DNA of 64,000 nucleotides from a virus (IMGVR_UViG_3300027963_000039); one strand, 5' to 3'; counted from the stretch's first letter, positions 14,479 to 61,425 are shown. Program-made: numbers and translations. The notes: a model not told the origin generated them from the letters alone.

Positions 14479-15183
14479 ATGAAAACATTTAAAACATTTA
14501 TTGTGGAATCAGACACAGAAGAAGATGACTCCAAAAAATTTCATTCATCCAATAAAATGAAAGATGAAATTGAATCTCATGCTAAAGGTCACACAGGTTG
14601 GTTGCGTAATTATAGTGATAAATCTAAACAAATGAATGATGCATTACATGACCATGCCGCTGGTAAAAAAATTGAAGATACTCAATTCAATGATCCTGAA
14701 AGGCATGAAAGAAATTTATCTTTTGCTCACGAAACTTCAAAAGTTTTAGCTAAACACCATACAAAATCCGACCATACTGTGTATTCTGGAATTCAACAGA
14801 AACACACTGAGATTTTTAAAAATAAAAATAAACCAACTAAACTACACCATCCTGGATTTATATCAACTTCTACGGATTTTAATCAAGCCACAAGGTTTAC
14901 AGGTGGTGGAAAAAATTCTAAAGAAGAACATCATGTGTTGAAAATTCATGTTCCAAAAGGAACACAAGGTGGTTCTATGAGTGGCAATACACACAGTCCT
15001 AAAGAAAAAGAAGTTCTTTTACAAAGGGGACATGATATTGAGGTACACCACAAACCAACAATCATAGACCATCCAAAGCATGGAAAAATTCATGTATGGA
15101 ATGCAAAAATTGTTGGACATAATCCAAAACCATTAAATGTTAAACCTGTAAAGGATGTTTTATATAAACATGAAATGAACTGA
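14479..15183 (+). CDS. ADP-ribosyltransferase (VIP2/C3/Alt-like), capsid-targeted
   Basis: VYSG, GFISTS, VLKIHVPKGT, EKEVLL motifs; N-terminus MKTFKTFIVE. Confidence 0.8.
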   Translation: MKTFKTFIVESDTEEDDSKKFHSSNKMKDEIESHAKGHTGWLRNYSDKSKQMNDALHDHAAGKKIEDTQFNDPERHERNLSFAHETSKVLAKHHTKSDHTVYSGIQQKHTEIFKNKNKPTKLHHPGFISTSTDFNQATRFTGGGKNSKEEHHVLKIHVPKGTQGGSMSGNTHSPKEKEVLLQRGHDIEVHHKPTIIDHPKHGKIHVWNAKIVGHNPKPLNVKPVKDVLYKHEMN

Positions 15184-21660: not shown

Positions 21661-22851
21661 ATGTTAACATTCAAAACCTATTTAACGGAAGAAGCCGAAG
21701 AATCTTCCCAACTTAAACATATTCATCATGCTGAAGATAGGCCGTTGATGCATGGCCATGCTGGTTTTGAACACGCATATGGTGCTTTACAAAAAGCTCA
21801 CGAACACATTAAGGCTGGTCAAAAAAGTTCCAACCTGACGATGAAATATGATGGTTCTCCATCAATCGTTTTTGGTCATCATCCAAAAACCGGTAAATTC
21901 TTTGTTGCAACCAAATCAGCGTTCAATAAAAACCCAAAAATTAATTATACAGAAAAAGATGTTGAAAAGAATCACGGACATGCTCCTGGTCTTGCTAAAA
22001 CTCTTAAACATGCACTTAAGCACTTGCCGAAAGTAACACCAAAACACGGTGTTTATCAAGGTGACCTAATGCATCATGCAGAAACAAAGACCTTGCATGA
22101 AGAATATATTGCAGAAGCCAAAGGTGATGTTTCATTCACACCAAACACTATCACCTATACTGCAAAAGGCGAAACAGCAAAGAAGGTTAAAAACTCAAAA
22201 GTAGGTGTTGTCGTTCATCACAAATATGATGATGAAATGAAACACGCTTCACCTAAAGTTGACCATGAAAATTTCAAACAACATAAAGATGTTCATATTC
22301 ACGGTGCAGAACACGACACAAGCAAAGTAAAACATTCAGCTGAAAACGAATCAGGTTTTCACAAGCATATGTCTGCCGCCAAAGAAATACATGATACACA
22401 TGGCCACAAGATGTATGATTCCGTTCACCCAAAACACTCAGGTGAAACTGGCCACCTATCAACCTACATAAACAAGACCGTGCGACATGATGAGGTTCCA
22501 TCTGTAAAAGGATTTAAAGAACATCTGAAAGACGTACATGAAAAGGCAGCTTCTAAAGTTAAAACGGAAAAGGCCAAATCAGAAAAAACTGGTGAGGGCG
22601 CCAAACAAGTTGCCCACGTTGAGAAACACAAAGCACATTATGGTAATTTATTGACTATGCATCATCATTTACATCAAGCAAAGAATCACTTAGTTAAATC
22701 ATTAGAAACACATGAAGGTGATTATGAGCATCATATTGAAGGTAAGAAATCAAAGCCAGAAGGATTCGTTGTACATCACAACAATGAACCTACTAAGTTG
22801 GTCAACCGTGCAGAATTTGCCAAACAAAATCTGTTGAAGGTTAGAAAATGA
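21661..22851 (+). CDS. His-rich capsid-targeted protein with ATP-dependent ligase/capping-type nucleotidyltransferase motifs (DUF6267-like)
   Basis: TMKYDGS (KxDG), YQGDL, PEGFVV, KLV; N-terminus MLTFKTYLTE. Confidence 0.65.
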   Translation: MLTFKTYLTEEAEESSQLKHIHHAEDRPLMHGHAGFEHAYGALQKAHEHIKAGQKSSNLTMKYDGSPSIVFGHHPKTGKFFVATKSAFNKNPKINYTEKDVEKNHGHAPGLAKTLKHALKHLPKVTPKHGVYQGDLMHHAETKTLHEEYIAEAKGDVSFTPNTITYTAKGETAKKVKNSKVGVVVHHKYDDEMKHASPKVDHENFKQHKDVHIHGAEHDTSKVKHSAENESGFHKHMSAAKEIHDTHGHKMYDSVHPKHSGETGHLSTYINKTVRHDEVPSVKGFKEHLKDVHEKAASKVKTEKAKSEKTGEGAKQVAHVEKHKAHYGNLLTMHHHLHQAKNHLVKSLETHEGDYEHHIEGKKSKPEGFVVHHNNEPTKLVNRAEFAKQNLLKVRK

Positions 22852-23537
22852 AAACCTATAAACAATTAATTTGGGAAGTTACCGGACAAGGCGGCCGAGA
22901 TTATGAAACTGTTATCAATGACAAATTAAAAAAACACGGTAAAGCACATCCAGACGCAAAAACTGCTGGTTCATCTGCTGACGCTCCCGATGCAAAGTTT
23001 CACCATAACGGTCAAGAACATAATTTAGAAATCAAAAAAGATAAAGGCGCTATGTTTGGCCAAATTGAATTGCATCATAATGGAAAATCTTGGGATGTTT
23101 CAGAGAAGTCTAAGAAAAAATATCCAGAAACACATAAAGCAATACAAAAAAGTGGTTTCTTAGATAAAGTTAATAAGCATTGGGGCAAACCATCGGGCGA
23201 CTACCATAAAGATTTAAAGATGGGTAATGTATACCATGACCACCACAATGCTGATCCAATCAAATCACATTATGGAAAAGATAGAAAAACAAATTATGTA
23301 CAAATAGGTGGCGGCCATGGACTTTATCATACAGGTCACGATGCTGCAAAATTAGGTTCACCCGAATTACACGGAAGAACACAGATTAGAGCAAGAATGA
23401 AACCAAGAGGATATGATGCAAACGGTAAGAGAACATATGGCGCTCTTGCTGTAATGTCATTGAAAGGTGCAGATAAATCACATCACGATTTGGATGCTGA
23501 ACCACCAAAACCTAATGTTAAAGTTGGCAAGAAATGA
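22848..23537 (+). CDS. His-rich capsid-targeted PD-(D/E)XK nuclease-like protein
   Basis: YE...APDAKF...NLEIK motif; N-terminus MKTYKQLIWE. Confidence 0.6.
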   Translation: MKTYKQLIWEVTGQGGRDYETVINDKLKKHGKAHPDAKTAGSSADAPDAKFHHNGQEHNLEIKKDKGAMFGQIELHHNGKSWDVSEKSKKKYPETHKAIQKSGFLDKVNKHWGKPSGDYHKDLKMGNVYHDHHNADPIKSHYGKDRKTNYVQIGGGHGLYHTGHDAAKLGSPELHGRTQIRARMKPRGYDANGKRTYGALAVMSLKGADKSHHDLDAEPPKPNVKVGKK

Positions 23538-25360
23538 AATCTTTTTTAGATTTAATTAAAGAACAAGAAGAATATGAGAAGCATCATGTGATAACCTTTG
23601 GTCGCATGAATCCGCCTACGACCGGTCATTTAAAATTAATTAATAAAGTTAAAGAGATTGCCAAAAAACACAAGGCATCATATGAAATTATCGTTTCTCA
23701 TTCTCAAGACAGTAAGAAAAATCCATTAAGTTCTGAACAAAAAGTTAAACATTTAACTAGGTACATGGCTTCTCCAAAAATAGAAGAAGCTGTTTCCATC
23801 AAATCGTCAGTACATAAAATTGCATCTAAACCAAAAATTACTGCTGCATCAAAAGAAAAACCAACTATATTACATCACGCAGTAGCATCATATAAGAATG
23901 GAGTAACGCATCTCCACGTTGTTGTTGGATCGGATCGTGTTAAAGAAATGCATGATCTATTGCATAAGTATAATGGCGTTAAAGCTGGTCACGGAGAATA
24001 CCACTTTAAAAGTATAAAAATTCACTCAGCAGGTCATCGTGATCCTGATGCTGAAGGTACAGAGGGTATGTCCGGAAGTAAGATGCGTGAACATGCCAAA
24101 AATAAAGACTTTAAAGAATTTAGAAAAGGCGTTCCTTCCCATGTGTCGGATGAACATGCCAAAGAATTGATGCATGATACACGCAAAGGTATGGGTTTAC
24201 ATGAGAGCCATTATCATGGAATGTTCAAAGCTGTTTTTGTAACTGGTGGTCCTGGCTCTGGAAAAGATGTTGTTATTCGTGAATCTATTCCACTATCAAA
24301 CGCAGTTGAAATAAATTCAGTACAGGCTTTTGAATATCTTGCAGACAAACATACTTTGTCACAAAGAACCTCTGATTTCCGTAGAGAATCGATTCGTAAC
24401 CGTGGTCCATTAATTATCAACGGACCAGCAGATGATATCGAAAGAATTTCTCACATTAAAGAAGAACTAGAAGATTTAGGTTACGATACACTTATGGTGT
24501 TTGTTAACACAACGGATGAAGCCAGTAAAGAAAGAAATTCTAGACTAAAAAGAATGATGAGTGAGTCCATTAGACATGATAAATGGATAAAATCTCAGGA
24601 AAACAAAGACTTTTTCCTTGAAAGGTTCTCATTTTTCAAAGAAATCGATAACAATCAAACAATACAACAGATTGAAGAAGATATTACTGACACATATCAA
24701 TTTATAAATAGGTTCATAAATGATCAATTCTATAGTGATATAGCTACAGATTGGTTTACAAGACGTAATAAATCAAATATATTTGAGGATAAAAATGTTA
24801 AAAGCTATAGTCAATTTTCTAAAATTAAAACCTCGGGTAACCGAGCAGAAGGACCTAGTGATATCCCAGCCGACAATCGAGCAGGAGCCACAGACACCGG
24901 TGACGACATCCGTGGAAACACCTTCCCAAGAAAAAACACAAACAAAACCTACACGTTCAAAACCTACAGCGAAGAAAACAACCCCAAGCTCACCATCAAC
25001 CCGAGCCCCAAGGAAACAAACTTCTCCAAGGACAAAGAAAAAAGTAGATTAAAGAATAAAAGATTCTCTGATTCTCCTACACAAAATCAGAGAATGAGAA
25101 ATGTAACAGGTATAGGTCCAGAATTTGATACTCGCCAGCAGGGAACAGTATATCCCATGTCCGGTCTAGGCGATGTGACTTACCGAGAACAGAAAGAAAT
25201 TATTAGTTTTAGGAAATTTAGAGAAGCGATTGATGATCCAGGAGCTGTTGACATGGGAGTTGGTGGAACACTTAATGGATCAACAAATAAAGAGCCTATG
25301 CAAACTTATAAAGACTCGGATAGAAATATTAACATTCAAATCAAAAAGAAAAAGAAATAA
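23534..25360 (+). CDS. Cytidylyltransferase-like (HIGH/Rossmann NTase) fused to P-loop kinase
   Basis: TFGRMNPPTTGH, VVGSDR, MSGSKMR; second domain VTGGPGSGKD...MVFVNT...ERN. Confidence 0.8.
   Translation: MKSFLDLIKEQEEYEKHHVITFGRMNPPTTGHLKLINKVKEIAKKHKASYEIIVSHSQDSKKNPLSSEQKVKHLTRYMASPKIEEAVSIKSSVHKIASKPKITAASKEKPTILHHAVASYKNGVTHLHVVVGSDRVKEMHDLLHKYNGVKAGHGEYHFKSIKIHSAGHRDPDAEGTEGMSGSKMREHAKNKDFKEFRKGVPSHVSDEHAKELMHDTRKGMGLHESHYHGMFKAVFVTGGPGSGKDVVIRESIPLSNAVEINSVQAFEYLADKHTLSQRTSDFRRESIRNRGPLIINGPADDIERISHIKEELEDLGYDTLMVFVNTTDEASKERNSRLKRMMSESIRHDKWIKSQENKDFFLERFSFFKEIDNNQTIQQIEEDITDTYQFINRFINDQFYSDIATDWFTRRNKSNIFEDKNVKSYSQFSKIKTSGNRAEGPSDIPADNRAGATDTGDDIRGNTFPRKNTNKTYTFKTYSEENNPKLTINPSPKETNFSKDKEKSRLKNKRFSDSPTQNQRMRNVTGIGPEFDTRQQGTVYPMSGLGDVTYREQKEIISFRKFREAIDDPGAVDMGVGGTLNGSTNKEPMQTYKDSDRNINIQIKKKKK
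24703..24710 (+). promoter_or_regulatory. Internal T4-type late promoter
   Basis: TATAAATA within CDS 23534-25360, ~85 nt before the nested ATG. Confidence 0.55.
24795..25052 (+). CDS. Nested overlapping (+1 frame) Thr/Pro/Lys-rich small protein
   Basis: GAGGA RBS, ATG, internal late promoter, local C-rich compositional shift across most of the ORF. Confidence 0.6.
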   Translation: MLKAIVNFLKLKPRVTEQKDLVISQPTIEQEPQTPVTTSVETPSQEKTQTKPTRSKPTAKKTTPSSPSTRAPRKQTSPRTKKKVD

Positions 25361-25372
25361 CGGGAGAAAATT

Positions 25373-27058
25373 ATGTTTGTCAAAAACACCAAAATCGAAT
25401 CTATTGCTGAAGCAGTTAAACAAGTTGTTGAAGCTTCACCTGTAAAAATTCCTACTCCAACAGGAACAAGAGTTCTTGGTACAAGTTATGGAAATTCTGC
25501 AAAGACCCATCGTGATCAAATATCTGATCCTTTTGCTGCTGTTAAAGGTCCAGGTAAAAAAGATTTGGAAAATATTGAGAAACCAAAGAAAAAACAAGAG
25601 AGTTTTTCTGCCTTCACAAACAAATTGCTCAATAGTTTAGAAGAAGATAAACAAATTCAGAAACAGATTGATGAAGTTCTTAAAAAAGATGCATCAGCTG
25701 GTGATTGGATTCACGATTTTGTACATTCAGACAATCCTAAATTTGCAGGTAAATCTAAAGCCGAGCGCAAGAAAATGGCTCTTGGTGCCTACTATGCAAA
25801 ACAAAATGAAGAAGTTGAGCAATTTGACGAAGCAGCCAAGCCTAACGAACTTCATGTAGTCGATGATGGCGTCGGCAGGTATAAAGTCCGTGCCGTTGGA
25901 TCTAACCACGCTCACGATATCAAGGTTGGTGAACATCTAACCAATAAACATCTGGATGATTTCCACGATAAGGGTGTTAGGGTGATGATTCATGATTATT
26001 TTGATGATTCTGCCGAACGGTTGAAACATAAACAGGTTGATGAAGCCAAAAAAGAATCTAAAAAAGATTTTGATGACCGCCAGAAAAGATTGGCTGCAGC
26101 TAGTAGTGAAACTGCAAAAGATCCAGAGCGTTTAAAAAAATTATCGAAGATTCCTGGTTATACTGCTGCAATGGATTTGGCTAAAAAAACAACAAAAGAA
26201 GAAGTTGAGCAGATCGATGAGATCGGTAATACACCAGCCGGCCAAAAAGCACTTCAAGCAGTAAACGATAGAGGCACCAAAGCAATGGATACTTGGAATA
26301 AAAAACCAGAAAGTGGTTATAGTTCTGCACCTAAAAAGACCACACGACAATTTGCGGGGGCAATGAATGCCGACCGTAGACAGCGTGGATTTGGAATTGA
26401 TGCCAGCGCCAAAGGTCGAGCTCAAAGACAGATTGATTATGCAAAAAGGATGCGTGGTGAGGAAGTTGAACAGGTTGATGAAGCAGTAACACGTAAACAC
26501 TTCCAACAAGTTGCAGATTTAATTAAATCGCATGATAATCCAGGTAAACGTAAAGAGTTAGCACAACATCATGCTGAAATCTTTAAACAACAAAATCCAC
26601 GTTTTGACCATGGAAAATTCATGAAAGCTTGTAATGTAAATGAATGGAAAGAAGAAGTTGAACAACAAGACGAAGCTTTGATTGGCAATCAGAAAAAAAT
26701 TGATAAGAACCATAATAACAAAATTGATGCACAAGATTTTAAAATTCTTCGTGGCAAAAAAGTTGATGAAGTTTTAAACCCTTCAAATAAAACTATTGAC
26801 ACATTAGCGGGTCGTAGTAAAAAAGTTCCTGCTGAAGCCAAGTTGGATAATAGCCACACTTCAGCAAAAACTCAATTAAAAGCTGAAGCAAAAACTCCAG
26901 AACATGACGATGTACCTTTTGATCCTCCATACAGAAGAACATCCGATGACGATACAGTAACAGACAAGTCTGGTGCAAAACATACACCAATGTCCCGTGC
27001 TAAACACTTGGCTCAAACGGCATTACAACGTGTAAAGAGTGACCTAAAGGCAAAATAA
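25373..27058 (+). CDS. Modular internal head polyprotein with EEVEQxDE linkers
   Basis: Repeated EEVEQ(F/I/V/Q)DE and K(Q/K)(I/V)DE linkers; EF-hand-like DKNHNNKIDAQD. Confidence 0.65.
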   Translation: MFVKNTKIESIAEAVKQVVEASPVKIPTPTGTRVLGTSYGNSAKTHRDQISDPFAAVKGPGKKDLENIEKPKKKQESFSAFTNKLLNSLEEDKQIQKQIDEVLKKDASAGDWIHDFVHSDNPKFAGKSKAERKKMALGAYYAKQNEEVEQFDEAAKPNELHVVDDGVGRYKVRAVGSNHAHDIKVGEHLTNKHLDDFHDKGVRVMIHDYFDDSAERLKHKQVDEAKKESKKDFDDRQKRLAAASSETAKDPERLKKLSKIPGYTAAMDLAKKTTKEEVEQIDEIGNTPAGQKALQAVNDRGTKAMDTWNKKPESGYSSAPKKTTRQFAGAMNADRRQRGFGIDASAKGRAQRQIDYAKRMRGEEVEQVDEAVTRKHFQQVADLIKSHDNPGKRKELAQHHAEIFKQQNPRFDHGKFMKACNVNEWKEEVEQQDEALIGNQKKIDKNHNNKIDAQDFKILRGKKVDEVLNPSNKTIDTLAGRSKKVPAEAKLDNSHTSAKTQLKAEAKTPEHDDVPFDPPYRRTSDDDTVTDKSGAKHTPMSRAKHLAQTALQRVKSDLKAK

Positions 27059-28419
27059 TGTATAATACTGCCAAAAAACTTAAAGAGATTGTCAAGGGAC
27101 CTGCACCAAAATCAACTTTTGGTACAGACCCTAGAGATCCTTGGTCAGCTAAAGCCGGTATTACTGAAGGTGCCTTAGAACAATATTTGATGTCGAGGGG
27201 AATTAATCCAAACTTTGTTTCTAAAGATACTAAAATCTCTCATGCAAAATCATCATCTTTCCTGAAATGGAAACGTGATCATATGATGGAAGAAACTGAT
27301 AAAAAAGACACAGTAGTTTTGGACATTCCTCTTTTAATTCGTGTTCTAGAATTGGCCAGAGAAGATATTAAAACCGACATGGACTTACACCGTGTAGTTG
27401 AGAAACTAATCTCAATACGCACTAAGGGTGTGTTGACCATGGACGATTACAATACTATTGCTGACATCAAAGAGAATCACATTGCAATCGCTATGGGTAA
27501 GATGTTAGATGATGAAGGAAGTATGGTTCTTGATCAGATGGATCAATTAGAGCGTGCTATCACAATGATTCGCAACCATATTGGTAAAGACTATGAGAAA
27601 CAACTTCCAGCATGGGTTCAGTCCAAGATAACACTTGCAACAGATTATGTTGATACTGTTGGTAACTATTTGACTACCAAAAATGAAGAAGTGGTTTCAG
27701 AAGTTAGTTCTGAACTATTGGATCGTTACAAAGAGAAAGCCAAGAAGTCTGCTGATGAGTTGACATCTAAGGGCCAACATAAAAAGTCCACAGACCGTTG
27801 GATGAATGTTATGAAGGCAACTGGTAAACAAATTGAAAAAACTACCGGAAACATTAGAAAAGCTTTAAACAAAGAAGATAAGTTTCAAGATACCTATGCA
27901 GCTACACAGACAGTAGGTCCAGAAGTTGAAAGTGCTGATAATAATTCAAATAAAATGTCCAAATCAGCAAAAATTATCAAATCTTTATATAAAAATAAAG
28001 GTGTGGAGGAAGGCTTGAAATCTATGTATCACAATGCTGTTGCTAAACATTATGGTCGTAAAGCAGACGATGCGTTTGACAATGGCGATGAGGAGGGCTT
28101 CAAAAAGTCTATGGACAAAAACATCAGCCATAAACTGAAAGCAGGCGAAAAGATTCCTCAAGTCCGCGATCCTAAAAAGTTTCAGCAAGGCATGGCGGAA
28201 GATATGTATGATACCGAAAAAGAAGATAAGTCGGTCGCATCGTATGGTAGACCACCAAAAATGTCATCGATAAATCCAAATAAAAATATTGGTGACAAAG
28301 CTCAGGCTGCAGCAGTTTTAACTGGCGGAAAAACTTTGACAGGAAAAACCAGAGATACGTTAGAGATTGATCCTATAATGCGAAAAGCAGGACCTTTGGA
28401 TCAGAATAAAAAAATATAA
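27058..28419 (+). CDS. Modular internal head protein
   Basis: Modules separated by ITE/IKE/VSE/VEE/MAE sites; LPAWVQSKIT module. Confidence 0.55.
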   Translation: MYNTAKKLKEIVKGPAPKSTFGTDPRDPWSAKAGITEGALEQYLMSRGINPNFVSKDTKISHAKSSSFLKWKRDHMMEETDKKDTVVLDIPLLIRVLELAREDIKTDMDLHRVVEKLISIRTKGVLTMDDYNTIADIKENHIAIAMGKMLDDEGSMVLDQMDQLERAITMIRNHIGKDYEKQLPAWVQSKITLATDYVDTVGNYLTTKNEEVVSEVSSELLDRYKEKAKKSADELTSKGQHKKSTDRWMNVMKATGKQIEKTTGNIRKALNKEDKFQDTYAATQTVGPEVESADNNSNKMSKSAKIIKSLYKNKGVEEGLKSMYHNAVAKHYGRKADDAFDNGDEEGFKKSMDKNISHKLKAGEKIPQVRDPKKFQQGMAEDMYDTEKEDKSVASYGRPPKMSSINPNKNIGDKAQAAAVLTGGKTLTGKTRDTLEIDPIMRKAGPLDQNKKI

Positions 28420-59830: not shown

Positions 59831-60999
59831 ATGGGTTTAGATATGTATGCTTTTTCAGTTGCAAAAGAAAATGCAATTGATGATTTTAAAATTGCTTTAG
59901 GCACAGATGGTTTCATGATTCAAAAAGAAGAATTGTTCTATTGGCGAAAGCACCACGATCTTCATGGTTGGATGGAACGTTTGTATCGTTCAAAAGGCGG
60001 CAGTAAAGAATCTTTTAATTGTGAGGCACTAAAACTTACCAGTAGAGATTTGGATGCTCTAGAGTTAGATGTGACGACCAATTCTTTACCTGAAACAAAA
60101 GGTTTCTTTTTTGGTGTTAATGTACCAGATGAAGAATCTATCGAATCAGATTTGGAATTTATTTCAAAAGCAAGAGAAGCTATTGAAATGGGCGATTGTG
60201 TTTATTATTATTCTTGGTGGTAATTATGAGTAGAATGTCTGAATTGTATATGGAAATTTGTGAATTGTCTAATCAGGGATACAAACCTACCAGTATTGCT
60301 ACTATGCTGGGTTTGCCATTAGATACCGTTAATAACGTTCTGTTTGATGATGTAGAAGAGCCGTATGAACCGGAAGATTACCGATACTATGATGGTGAGT
60401 AAATCAGTCAGTCTTTACATTTTAAGTAAATGATTGTTTTTTGGATAATTGTTGGAATTTTTGTTTTTGAATTTGTTTTAGGATTCATTGTTACCCTATG
60501 TATTAGAAAATGGGGAATTTATGGTCGTCATTAATTTGTTAAGGAATTGGATATGATTACAATAGATGGTTTGACCAAAGCACAAACTAAATTGCTCGAT
60601 ACAATGTGGAGTATCGATGGTTATGATGATTATTTGAAATGGAAATCGGAACTTTCCGAATCCAAACAATTAGAAGTAGAATTGTTGGAAGAAATGTTGA
60701 TGTTGGCCGATATAGATGATATTGAAGATGTTTCTCAAGCTCGAAACATACTTGCAAATTTTTAAGGAATGAAAATGAAAGTATCAGAATTAATTGAATT
60801 ACTACAGGACATGAATGAAGAAGCAGAAGTGCATTTTTCATACAATTACGGTGATCATTGGCGGACAAAAGTATCACCTTCAGTAGATGAAGTCTATGAT
60901 GGTTATATTGAGTATTCTGATTACCATCGAATGTATAAACTGATTGATGAATATAGTGATGATGTAGGCGATGCACGTAAAGTGGTCGTTTTAAGTTAA
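59831..60999 (+). CDS. Four hypothetical ORFs (59831-60223, ~60226-60402, ~60553-60765, 60769-60999)
   Basis: RBSs; first begins MGLDMY..YWRKH..LHGW and ends YYSWW, a common phage family pattern. Confidence 0.6.
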
Positions 61000-61000
61000 T

Positions 61001-61425
61001 ATGAACGAACGAATTAAACAACTTGCTGAACAGGCTGGTTTGAATGATGCTTATATGAATTTTGACCATAAATACTTCGCCCAGTTGATTGTGCGAGAAT
61101 GTTTAGGCATTGTACACGATGCTGAACGAGGTGGTAGTAATGAAATATGGGACAATGCCGTGAAGTTTATTAGACGAGATTTACAAGAACATTTTGGAGT
61201 TGAAGAATGAACGAACGAATTCGAGAACTTGCTGAACTGTCTGGTCTTGCGTTTGAGAAGTTCGCCCAGTTGATTGTTCAGGAATGCATGAATCAAGTAA
61301 GAGAACAATATCTGCCCGTGCTAAAAGATGAACTTATGATGAAGGACACGCATTGGAAGGGTTATGTCCAGTGCGGGGTTGATAGTTATGTAGCGATTAA
61401 AGAACATTTCGGAGTTGAAGAATGA
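61001..61425 (+). CDS. Two tandem paralogous small proteins (MNERI...FAQLIV.EC...EHFGVEE)
   Basis: 61001-61210 and 61207-61425 share DNA blocks ATGAACGAACGAATT, TTCGCCCAGTTGATTGT and GAACATTTYGGAGTTGAAGAATGA. Confidence 0.8.

Follow-up and report, generated by a model that had tools for sequence, protein, structure and literature searches.

Leader-tagged, histidine-rich enzymes as probable capsid cargo of an uncultured T4-like phage, with candidate protease sites in a loop and a linker

Proteins that a phage injects arrive in the host as its first weapons, yet little is understood of how an enzyme in its folded state withstands the prohead protease, lies among packed DNA and traverses a 4-nm tail tube. 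We analysed a 64-kb stretch of viral DNA (IMGVR_UViG_3300027963_000039; hereafter the window, that is the whole stretch at its full length), the source of which is an uncultured T4-like myophage from a lake. The analysis centres on four genes whose products are rich in histidine (His) and start with a short leader, namely those for a DUF6267 protein of 396 amino acids (aa), a nucleotidyltransferase (NTase) fused to a kinase, a nuclease-like protein and an ADP-ribosyltransferase (ART).

The closest described counterparts are the internal proteins IPI-III and Alt of T4. According to two accounts (PMC3012670, PMC5694885), the T4 internal proteins carry a capsid-targeting sequence (CTS), MKTYQEFIAE, that is removed by the gp21 prohead protease, and the second places the cleavages of Alt at ITE-6 and LTE-619. 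The locus in the window resembles this system in its 10-residue N-terminal leaders ending in [LI]xE, in the gp21-type protease encoded by a near-identical genome, in its basic cargo, one member of which is an ART, in the behaviour of the cargo genes as exchangeable cassettes, and in a second cleavage site, a candidate here, which in Alt is cut and lies near the C-terminus (LTE-619; PMC5694885). It differs from T4 in several respects: T4 cargo contains 0-1.9% His and the body of Alt does not avoid the motif, whereas the cargo of the window adds a ligase-like enzyme, an NTase and a nuclease-like protein, and has a candidate site inside a catalytic fold. For the giant phages phiKZ and SPN3US, in which head proteins are processed more than once, PMC5694885 describes a likeness, i.e. 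cleavage of cargo or ejection proteins by the prohead protease at a number of short motifs ending in Glu. There, however, the protease is of the S80 type with an S/A-x-E motif, the cuts reported in the part consulted fall in N-terminal propeptides or at C-termini, none being described inside a catalytic domain, and that part does not mention His enrichment. Finally, the cytidylyltransferase gp154 of Synechococcus phage S-CREM2, which mass spectrometry identified in CsCl-purified virions (PMC10665884), is homologous to the NTase domain of the window (29% identity, E 3e-27) and has a CTS-like leader (MKNFSSFLTE), but it contains 3.8% His and two Cys and is not fused to a kinase.

The features concerned, all on the + strand, are the following.

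21661..22851, +: 396-aa His-rich (12.9%) putative RNA-ligase-like nucleotidyltransferase, DUF6267 (Pfam, AF2 model, fold matches, motifs)
21661..21690, +: its leader MLTFKTYLTE, CTS-like and ending in L-x-E (conserved in relatives, disordered in the model)
22090..22119, +: its loop insert TLHEEYIAEA with two tandem [LI]xE, a candidate prohead-protease site (insertion, motif conservation, model confidence)
23534..24205, +: leader MKSFLDLIKE and His-rich (~10%) HIGH-motif NTase domain of the 608-aa protein (PF01467, leader)
23777..23791, +: KIEEA in a rare NTase-domain loop insertion, residues 82-86 (~2 of 120 relatives)
24194..24208, +: GLHES linker between NTase and kinase, residues 221-225, a candidate protease site (119 of 120 relatives)
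24206..25360, +: acidic P-loop kinase domain (isoelectric point 5.6, His 0.8%, [LI]xE-rich), then a basic low-complexity tail (composition)
22848..23537, +: 229-aa His-rich (8.7%) protein with leader MKTYKQLIWE and a D..ExK motif; an indel cassette (absent from the near-identical genome)
14479..15183, +: 234-aa His-rich (10.7%) ART with leader MKTFKTFIVE; an indel cassette (PF03496; absent from the near-identical genome)

From composition, conservation, motif placement and naturally split genes we infer packaging, cleavage and a function of the His residues, that is, a set of leader-tagged His-rich cargo enzymes with motif-purged bodies and probable cuts at one loop and one linker; as a whole we give this reading a probability of roughly one half. 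Four unrelated enzyme domains with leaders like the T4 CTS would be loaded into the prohead, where the head protease would trim the leaders, and the enzymes would be injected with the DNA, as are the T4 internal proteins and Alt. The TLHE-EYIAE/A loop and the GLHE/S linker would probably be cut as well, which would leave pieces of at most 28 kDa and, in the case of the loop, a ligase-like enzyme made of two chains, just as related phages encode it in two genes. His would supply titratable positive charge and take the place of aromatic and aliphatic residues, a make-up that would suit storage beside packed DNA and easy, reversible unfolding. Selection would then have rebuilt four folds into His-rich, hydrophobic-poor, motif-purged bodies with the motif kept in defined loops. 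If true, this offers a template for engineering enzymes delivered by T4-type capsids, with pH-dependent stability, fragment complementation and N-terminomics as testable handles on cargo design.

Histidine content and N-terminal leaders

A reading of the sequence alone had put the 396-aa protein at about 50 His (~13%), and had named the ART, the 229-aa protein and the NTase half of the 608-aa protein as His-rich but not the kinase half or the replication proteins; the counts agree on every point. The 396-aa protein contains 51 His (12.9%; binomial p = 1e-24) against a background of ~2.1%, the background being the + strand open reading frames (ORFs) of at least 90 aa (69 in all) after exclusion of the four His-rich ones. 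His makes up 25 of the 234 residues of the ART (10.7%) and 20 of the 229 of its smaller companion (8.7%), while the NTase-kinase has 24 in residues 1-230 (10.4%) versus 3 in residues 231-608 (0.8%). The polymerase, helicase, primase and other ORFs of the window range from 0.7 to 3%.

The enrichment is a stable property of the families concerned. All 120 closest relatives of the DUF6267 protein (70-92% identity) contain 10.5-15% His and neither Cys nor Trp; 34 of the 51 His are each retained in at least 90% of the 116 relatives in the clade, and mean conservation of His (0.85) is on par with that of Gly and above that of Lys, Glu and Asp. The NTase-kinase was compared in 120 relatives: His makes up 8.1-14.2% of their N-terminal domain (median 11.6%) versus 0-1.5% (median 0.5%) of the remainder, and the switch coincides with a G[LI]HE junction that is kept in 119 of them. 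The same module occurs with 10-11% His on a contig of 60% GC (L020), which implies that an AT-rich codon bias is not the cause. The His excess is thus selected and not a result of drift. The excess might instead be neutral, a by-product of composition or mutation (codon bias in an A-rich coding strand, for example), or stem from faulty ORF calls; in keeping with this are the high AT skew of the region (0.26 at 22-24 kb) and a spurious-looking antisense ORF (60587-61069) that reaches 10.6% His too. We nevertheless consider such an origin highly improbable: the His positions are better conserved than Lys, Glu and Asp, the content changes ~13-fold at a domain boundary inside one gene, the 60%-GC lineage keeps the trait, and the ORFs have Pfam matches as well as confident fold predictions. 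As to the antisense ORF itself (160 aa, - strand), it is probably no gene and was left out of the statistics; it is the sole long ORF on the - strand in its part of the window, where nearly all long ORFs (over 90 aa), and all genuine genes, are on the + strand.

The cargo domains share a characteristic make-up, i.e. 9-13% His that is dispersed and conserved in position, 14-15% Lys, little Arg and no Cys, with isoelectric points of 9.3-9.65, a grand average of hydropathy of -0.9 to -1.2 and a content of large hydrophobic residues ~10 percentage points below that of low-His homologues. In the high-His forms I, L, N, F and Y are reduced and H, K, A and G increased, and where these forms have His, low-His homologues have Tyr (3-fold enriched), Ser, Thr, Asn, Phe, Ile and Val. 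For 15 out of 50 His, the residue in the low-His homologues is mostly a hydrophobic or aromatic one, a share equal to that of all positions, which implies that core and surface residues were replaced alike, burial being judged here by substitution patterns only. Between pH 7.5 and 5.5 the net charge of the 396-aa protein would rise from +13 to +54, and that of the His-rich domains in general roughly fourfold. The charge and substitution patterns are consistent with His acting as a pH switch, as had been proposed, and we put this forward tentatively, as less likely than not; the unfolding for passage through the tail that had been proposed with it is likewise tentative. The metal-dependent switch that had been proposed alongside receives no support from the spacing of the residues: in all four domains, metal-site-like clustering (HH, HxH, HxxH, HxxxH) stays within 1.9 standard deviations of shuffled sequences (p at least 0.08). 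With a random spacing, the domains are unlike known His-tract metal binders, and they do not belong to that class of proteins, which is recognised by clustered runs beyond what composition predicts. A literature search for His-rich phage ejection proteins returned nothing relevant.

With respect to the leaders, a start of the type M-[KL]-[TS]-[FYL]-x-x-... is found on seven ORFs of the window, five of which have [LI]xE at residue 10. The leaders of the four His-rich proteins (MKTFKTFIVE, MLTFKTYLTE, MKTYKQLIWE and MKSFLDLIKE) are conserved in relatives, as seen for the DUF6267, 229-aa and NTase-kinase proteins; in DUF6267 the [LI]xE at residue 10 is present in 113 of 117 close relatives and in 70 of 93 diverse ones. 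Leaders that match the CTS and end in the gp21 motif most likely signify loading into the prohead, trimming and injection.

The required protease can be found in a nearly identical genome. A viral record of 107 kb (G001), whose sequence agrees with that of the window at 97-99% identity across 14-31 kb, encodes a gp21-type prohead protease (Peptidase_S77, PF03420; E 3.6e-40, 133.5 bits). The adjoining gene specifies a scaffold-like protein with 13 [LI]xE motifs versus 6.9 expected, and the protease itself has 7 versus 3.2, in which the pair resembles gp22 (16 versus 5.9) and gp21 (7 versus 2.6) of T4. G001 lacks the ART gene and the 229-aa gene (14479-15183 and 22848-23537 in the window), and there the stop of the DUF6267 gene directly overlaps the start of the NTase-kinase gene. 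Cargo genes with leaders thus act like exact cassettes that are swapped gene for gene and joined at ATGA overlaps, in the manner of the hypervariable loci for internal proteins in T-even phages. Among cultured phages, the nearest relatives of the 396-aa protein come from T4-like Kyanoviridae, that is from cyanomyophages and from Methylophilales and Pelagibacter myophages. Taken with the virion-borne homologue of S-CREM2, the leaders and the G001 protease make it very likely, by analogy, that the His-rich enzymes are capsid cargo, and co-packaging as first suggested from the sequence would then hold.

The relation between His content and packaging is less straightforward, and it had been proposed that the two be compared. 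A leader is present on each of the four proteins that have a domain above 8% His (Fisher p = 4e-5), but three other leader proteins of the window contain only 1-2% His, and within DUF6267 His content and leader presence are not correlated (p = 0.30), whereas a lack of Cys does go with the leader (p = 0.0045). Together with the 3.8% His of gp154 and the 0-1.9% of the T4 head proteins, this counts against a strict coupling, and His richness is not required for packaging. One may ask whether the His content serves the function of the DUF6267-NTase module (nucleic-acid or nucleotide binding, phospho-His, Zn/Ni) and is unrelated to capsid storage, the remaining enzymes of the phage having gained the trait on the same biochemical grounds. 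The lack of a correlation with the leader, and a packaged S-CREM2 NTase that is not His-rich, fit such a function, and so does the composition of the whole DUF6267 family, which is His-enriched (range 1-14%, median ~6.5% over 150 representatives at 50% clustering) and has eight His conserved family-wide. Distant homologues are ordinary in their His content (Melnitz 1.2%, S-PM2 1.4%). Conversely, the trait is common to four unrelated folds in one phage while the fused kinase domain has 0.8%, the HH, HxH and HxxxH spacings are at random expectation, and core-like and surface-like positions are replaced equally, as expected of a bulk property and not of specific sites. We consider a module-specific function unlikely. 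Our own broader proposal, namely that dispersed His substitution, with bodies purged of protease motifs, is a general adaptation for capsid storage and tail delivery and that the two-chain enzyme, made by the head protease or by an equivalent gene split, reassembles in the host, is itself speculative and ranks only somewhat higher; if true, it would make this a design rule for enzymes that phages inject.

Two further proteins have variant leaders ending in [LI]xE: the Lys/Asp/Glu-rich products of 561 aa (25373-27058; ...KIESIAE, ending at residue 13) and 453 aa (27058-28419; MYNTAKKLKE, ending at residue 10). Judging by these leaders, they may belong to the same cargo set.

Motif placement, candidate cut sites and split genes

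In the 117 members of the DUF6267 clade, [LI]xE occurs at three sites only, namely at residue 10 (113 members), 147 (114) and 152 (91). The latter two lie in the insert TLHEEYIAEA (residues 144-153), which lies between the YQGD and FTPNTITY strands; its position at 22090-22119 between ligase motifs, noted from the sequence alone, is thereby borne out. Within the family, the insert is a clade-specific, length-variable insertion, and it lies in an unstructured loop, where the predicted local distance difference test (pLDDT) of the AlphaFold2 (AF2) model falls below 50 at residues 147-152. The loop follows the pattern [LI]xE..[ILVM]xE[AS], with conservation of 97% (L/I), 97% (E), 91% (I/L/V/M), 90% (E) and 79% (A/S at P1'); P3 and P1 are conserved while the P2 positions are free (entropies of 2.0 and 3.2 bits). 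In the His-rich domain of the NTase-kinase, the only conserved [LI]xE motifs are those of the leader and of G[LI]HE-224 (119 of 120 relatives). The ART has its sole [LI]xE at residue 10.

The bodies of the enzymes tend to be free of the motif, and in DUF6267 the depletion grows with His content: proteins with at least 8% His have 0.46 [LI]xE in the body versus 2.09 expected, those of intermediate content 1.33 versus 2.45, and those below 4.5% His 4.30 versus 3.40. The NTase domain body has 0 versus 0.73 expected, while the kinase body has 6.29 versus 3.11. In T4 Alt no depletion is found (8 versus 7.8). One reading of this pattern is that the His-rich, hydrophobic-poor domains are loosely folded while the protease is active and hence do not tolerate internal motifs. 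The idea that the enzymes are cut into pieces accordingly needs rewording: the loop and the linker do resemble protease sites, but the His-rich bodies are depleted of them, and the enzymes are better described as shielded from the protease apart from one or two designed loops. The additional sites named at first, KIEEA and GLHES, also fared differently. Every flagged site lies within a low-confidence segment of the models, and GLHES is conserved as described, but KIEEA is an insertion found in ~2 of 120 relatives, three others having a different insertion in the same loop (ITEA or ISEA), so that the case for KIEEA as a conserved site is weak.

Natural variation offers an independent view of the loop. 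On contig L018 the DUF6267 protein is encoded by two overlapping genes with a TAATG junction. The product of the first (142 aa) has the leader, ends in ...GDLMHTPEDHK and is 73% identical to residues 1-141 of the 396-aa protein; that of the second (252 aa) starts with MSKVSFTPN, is devoid of a leader and matches residues 157-393 at 59% identity. The pair lacks only residues 142-156, that is the loop insert, and His is abundant in either half (10.6% and 13.5%). It is followed by a gene for a stand-alone NTase of 202 aa that ends in ...RKSMGK at the GLHE junction, the P-loop kinase being encoded elsewhere on the contig. The same split layout is found in two further lineages, one comprising the contigs of P0213 and the other the 60%-GC contig L020, each of the two being a separate representative in a clustering at 50% identity. 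As a consequence, a backbone break at the loop is compatible with a maintained and presumably functional enzyme. The relatives whose genes break at the loop, and the NTases that end at GLHE, lend independent support to the notion of split enzymes that had been raised at the outset, and by their sequences the protease-cut loop and the gene split look like alternative routes to one two-chain product. Five half-length members (P0221, P0262, P0241, P0243 and P0217) were considered as further split genes but look like truncated or chimeric gene calls and were not counted.

The high-GC contig L020 (ENA ERZ2944847 NODE_29, 86.6 kb) deserves separate mention. Its split DUF6267 and stand-alone NTase both bear leaders, and the module adjoins CsgG/CsgF curli-secretion genes and a FecR gene, a context that is possibly bacterial or that of a prophage, the module being otherwise seen in T4-like phages.

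Whether the loop is actually cut has to be weighed against the possibility that the proteins are cargo with uncut internal loops, the insert then being a docking or regulatory element (a second scaffold contact or a substrate flap) in enzymes that remain single-chain once the leader is gone. Several observations speak for intact chains and against cleavage. The total number of [LI]xE motifs is at chance, with 3 versus 2.8 expected in the 396-aa protein and 7 versus 5.1 in the 608-aa protein. The motif alone does not predict cutting, since only two of the eight in Alt are cut and six are retained. In some members of the clade the second loop motif is missing, or the insert altogether, and in most of the DUF6267 family the loop is short and the motif absent. 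Moreover, a cut after motif III would divide the nucleotidyltransferase fold, and activity would then require the chains to stay associated or to find each other again. On the other hand, the predicted disorder of the loop, combined with conservation of P3, P1 and P1' only, has the signature of a protease site, and the split genes demonstrate that a break exactly at the loop is tolerated and maintained. The insert is also not recognised as a second leader: with a gapless profile of 187 leaders, its candidacy as an internal leader copy was rejected, as the best internal score fell below the 95% level of shuffled sequences, and the similarity of its DNA to the leader-coding segments is weak. On balance we regard intact loops as the less probable option, at about one chance in four, and cleavage at the TLHEEYIAEA loop and the GLHES linker, as suggested by these sequence patterns, as plausible and slightly favoured.

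Identity of the four proteins

The 396-aa protein matches Pfam DUF6267 (PF19782) over residues 19-392 with E 3e-94 (316.9 bits, cut-off 27). Its AF2 model, built from an alignment of 93 sequences, has a pLDDT of 92.3 and a predicted TM-score of 0.90, with disorder only at residues 1-15 and 147-152. K62, D64 and G65 (KxDG), Q133-G134-D135, E367-G368-x-V370 and K379 are each present in at least 90% of the 93 sequences; ligase motifs I, III, IV and V were assigned by position and by eye. In an exhaustive structural comparison (VIA-align) the top seven matches are all RNA ligases (Z 7.6-8.9, root-mean-square deviation ~4 Å, 174-197 residues aligned), among them 5cot (Z 8.9), Trl1 (8.3) and T4 Rnl2 (8.1), where a Z near 8 is borderline according to the tool. 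Foldseek of the model against the PDB returned nothing at E of 0.001 or below (best E 0.07), and a search of the family profile against PDB sequences gave chance helical matches only. Like the RNA ligases (Naegleria Rnl 5cot, the ligase domain of fungal Trl1, T4 Rnl2 and Rnl1, T. brucei REL1), the protein has KxDG and the same order of acidic and Lys motifs, and like T4 Rnl/Pnk and Trl1 it adjoins a P-loop kinase. It differs from them by a helical insert of ~120 residues, by its ~13% His and by the lack of detectable sequence similarity to solved structures, being known from its sequence and a model. We assign the RNA-ligase fold to DUF6267 with moderate confidence, and its likely role is that of a virion-borne RNA-ligase-like enzyme acting with the NTase and the kinase. 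A literature search for DUF6267 returned no papers. The family is abundant, with thousands of metagenomic members.

Some DUF6267 members (P0123, P0237, P0239 and others) form part of fusion proteins 1000-1250 aa long. P0123 starts with the NTase and has its DUF6267 domain at residues 848-1239, and PHROG 455 models a DUF6267-NTase fusion as well; the ligase-like and NTase domains thus occur together in fused form and also as neighbouring genes.

In the 229-aa protein D48, E61 and K63 are invariant among 45 relatives. Pfam and NCBIfam models do not match it, and in the Atlas it comes closest to R.HinP1I/MspI-like clusters, which at a score of 0.90 is no more than a lead; from its motif it is a probable PD-(D/E)xK nuclease. 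The family has a median His content of 6.7%, and among the relatives listed Cys is absent in 68 of 72. The ART scores 46.3 bits against PF03496 (cut-off 23.4); no relatives of it were found in viral contigs or cultured phages.

The NTase domain of the 608-aa protein scores 31.4 bits against PF01467 (CTP_transf_like; cut-off 21), and in its FGRMNPPTTGH segment (TxGH) F22, G23, R24, M25, P27, P28, T29, G31 and H32 are invariant, with N26 in at least 90% of sequences. NCBIfam NMNAT models score far below their cut-offs. The model has pLDDT below 50 at residues 80-98 and 220-226, and its two-domain layout is matched in Foldseek by NadR (E 2.5e-6) and ATP sulfurylase-APS kinase (E 2.9e-7), at TM-scores of only 0.22-0.30. 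The kinase domain (24206-24823) is acidic, contains hardly any His and has [LI]xE motifs at twice the expected number, each of them conserved, a composition that recalls the protease-degraded T4 proteins gp22 and gp68. It might be destroyed in the head, or it might serve as an acidic partner of the basic NTase. In the disordered tail, the segment KTYTFKTYSEE (24941-24973, residues 470-480) resembles the DUF6267 leader MLTFKTYLTEE and is the best internal match of the leader profile in the 608-aa protein (score 0.1); it may be the leader remnant of a formerly separate gene that was later fused.

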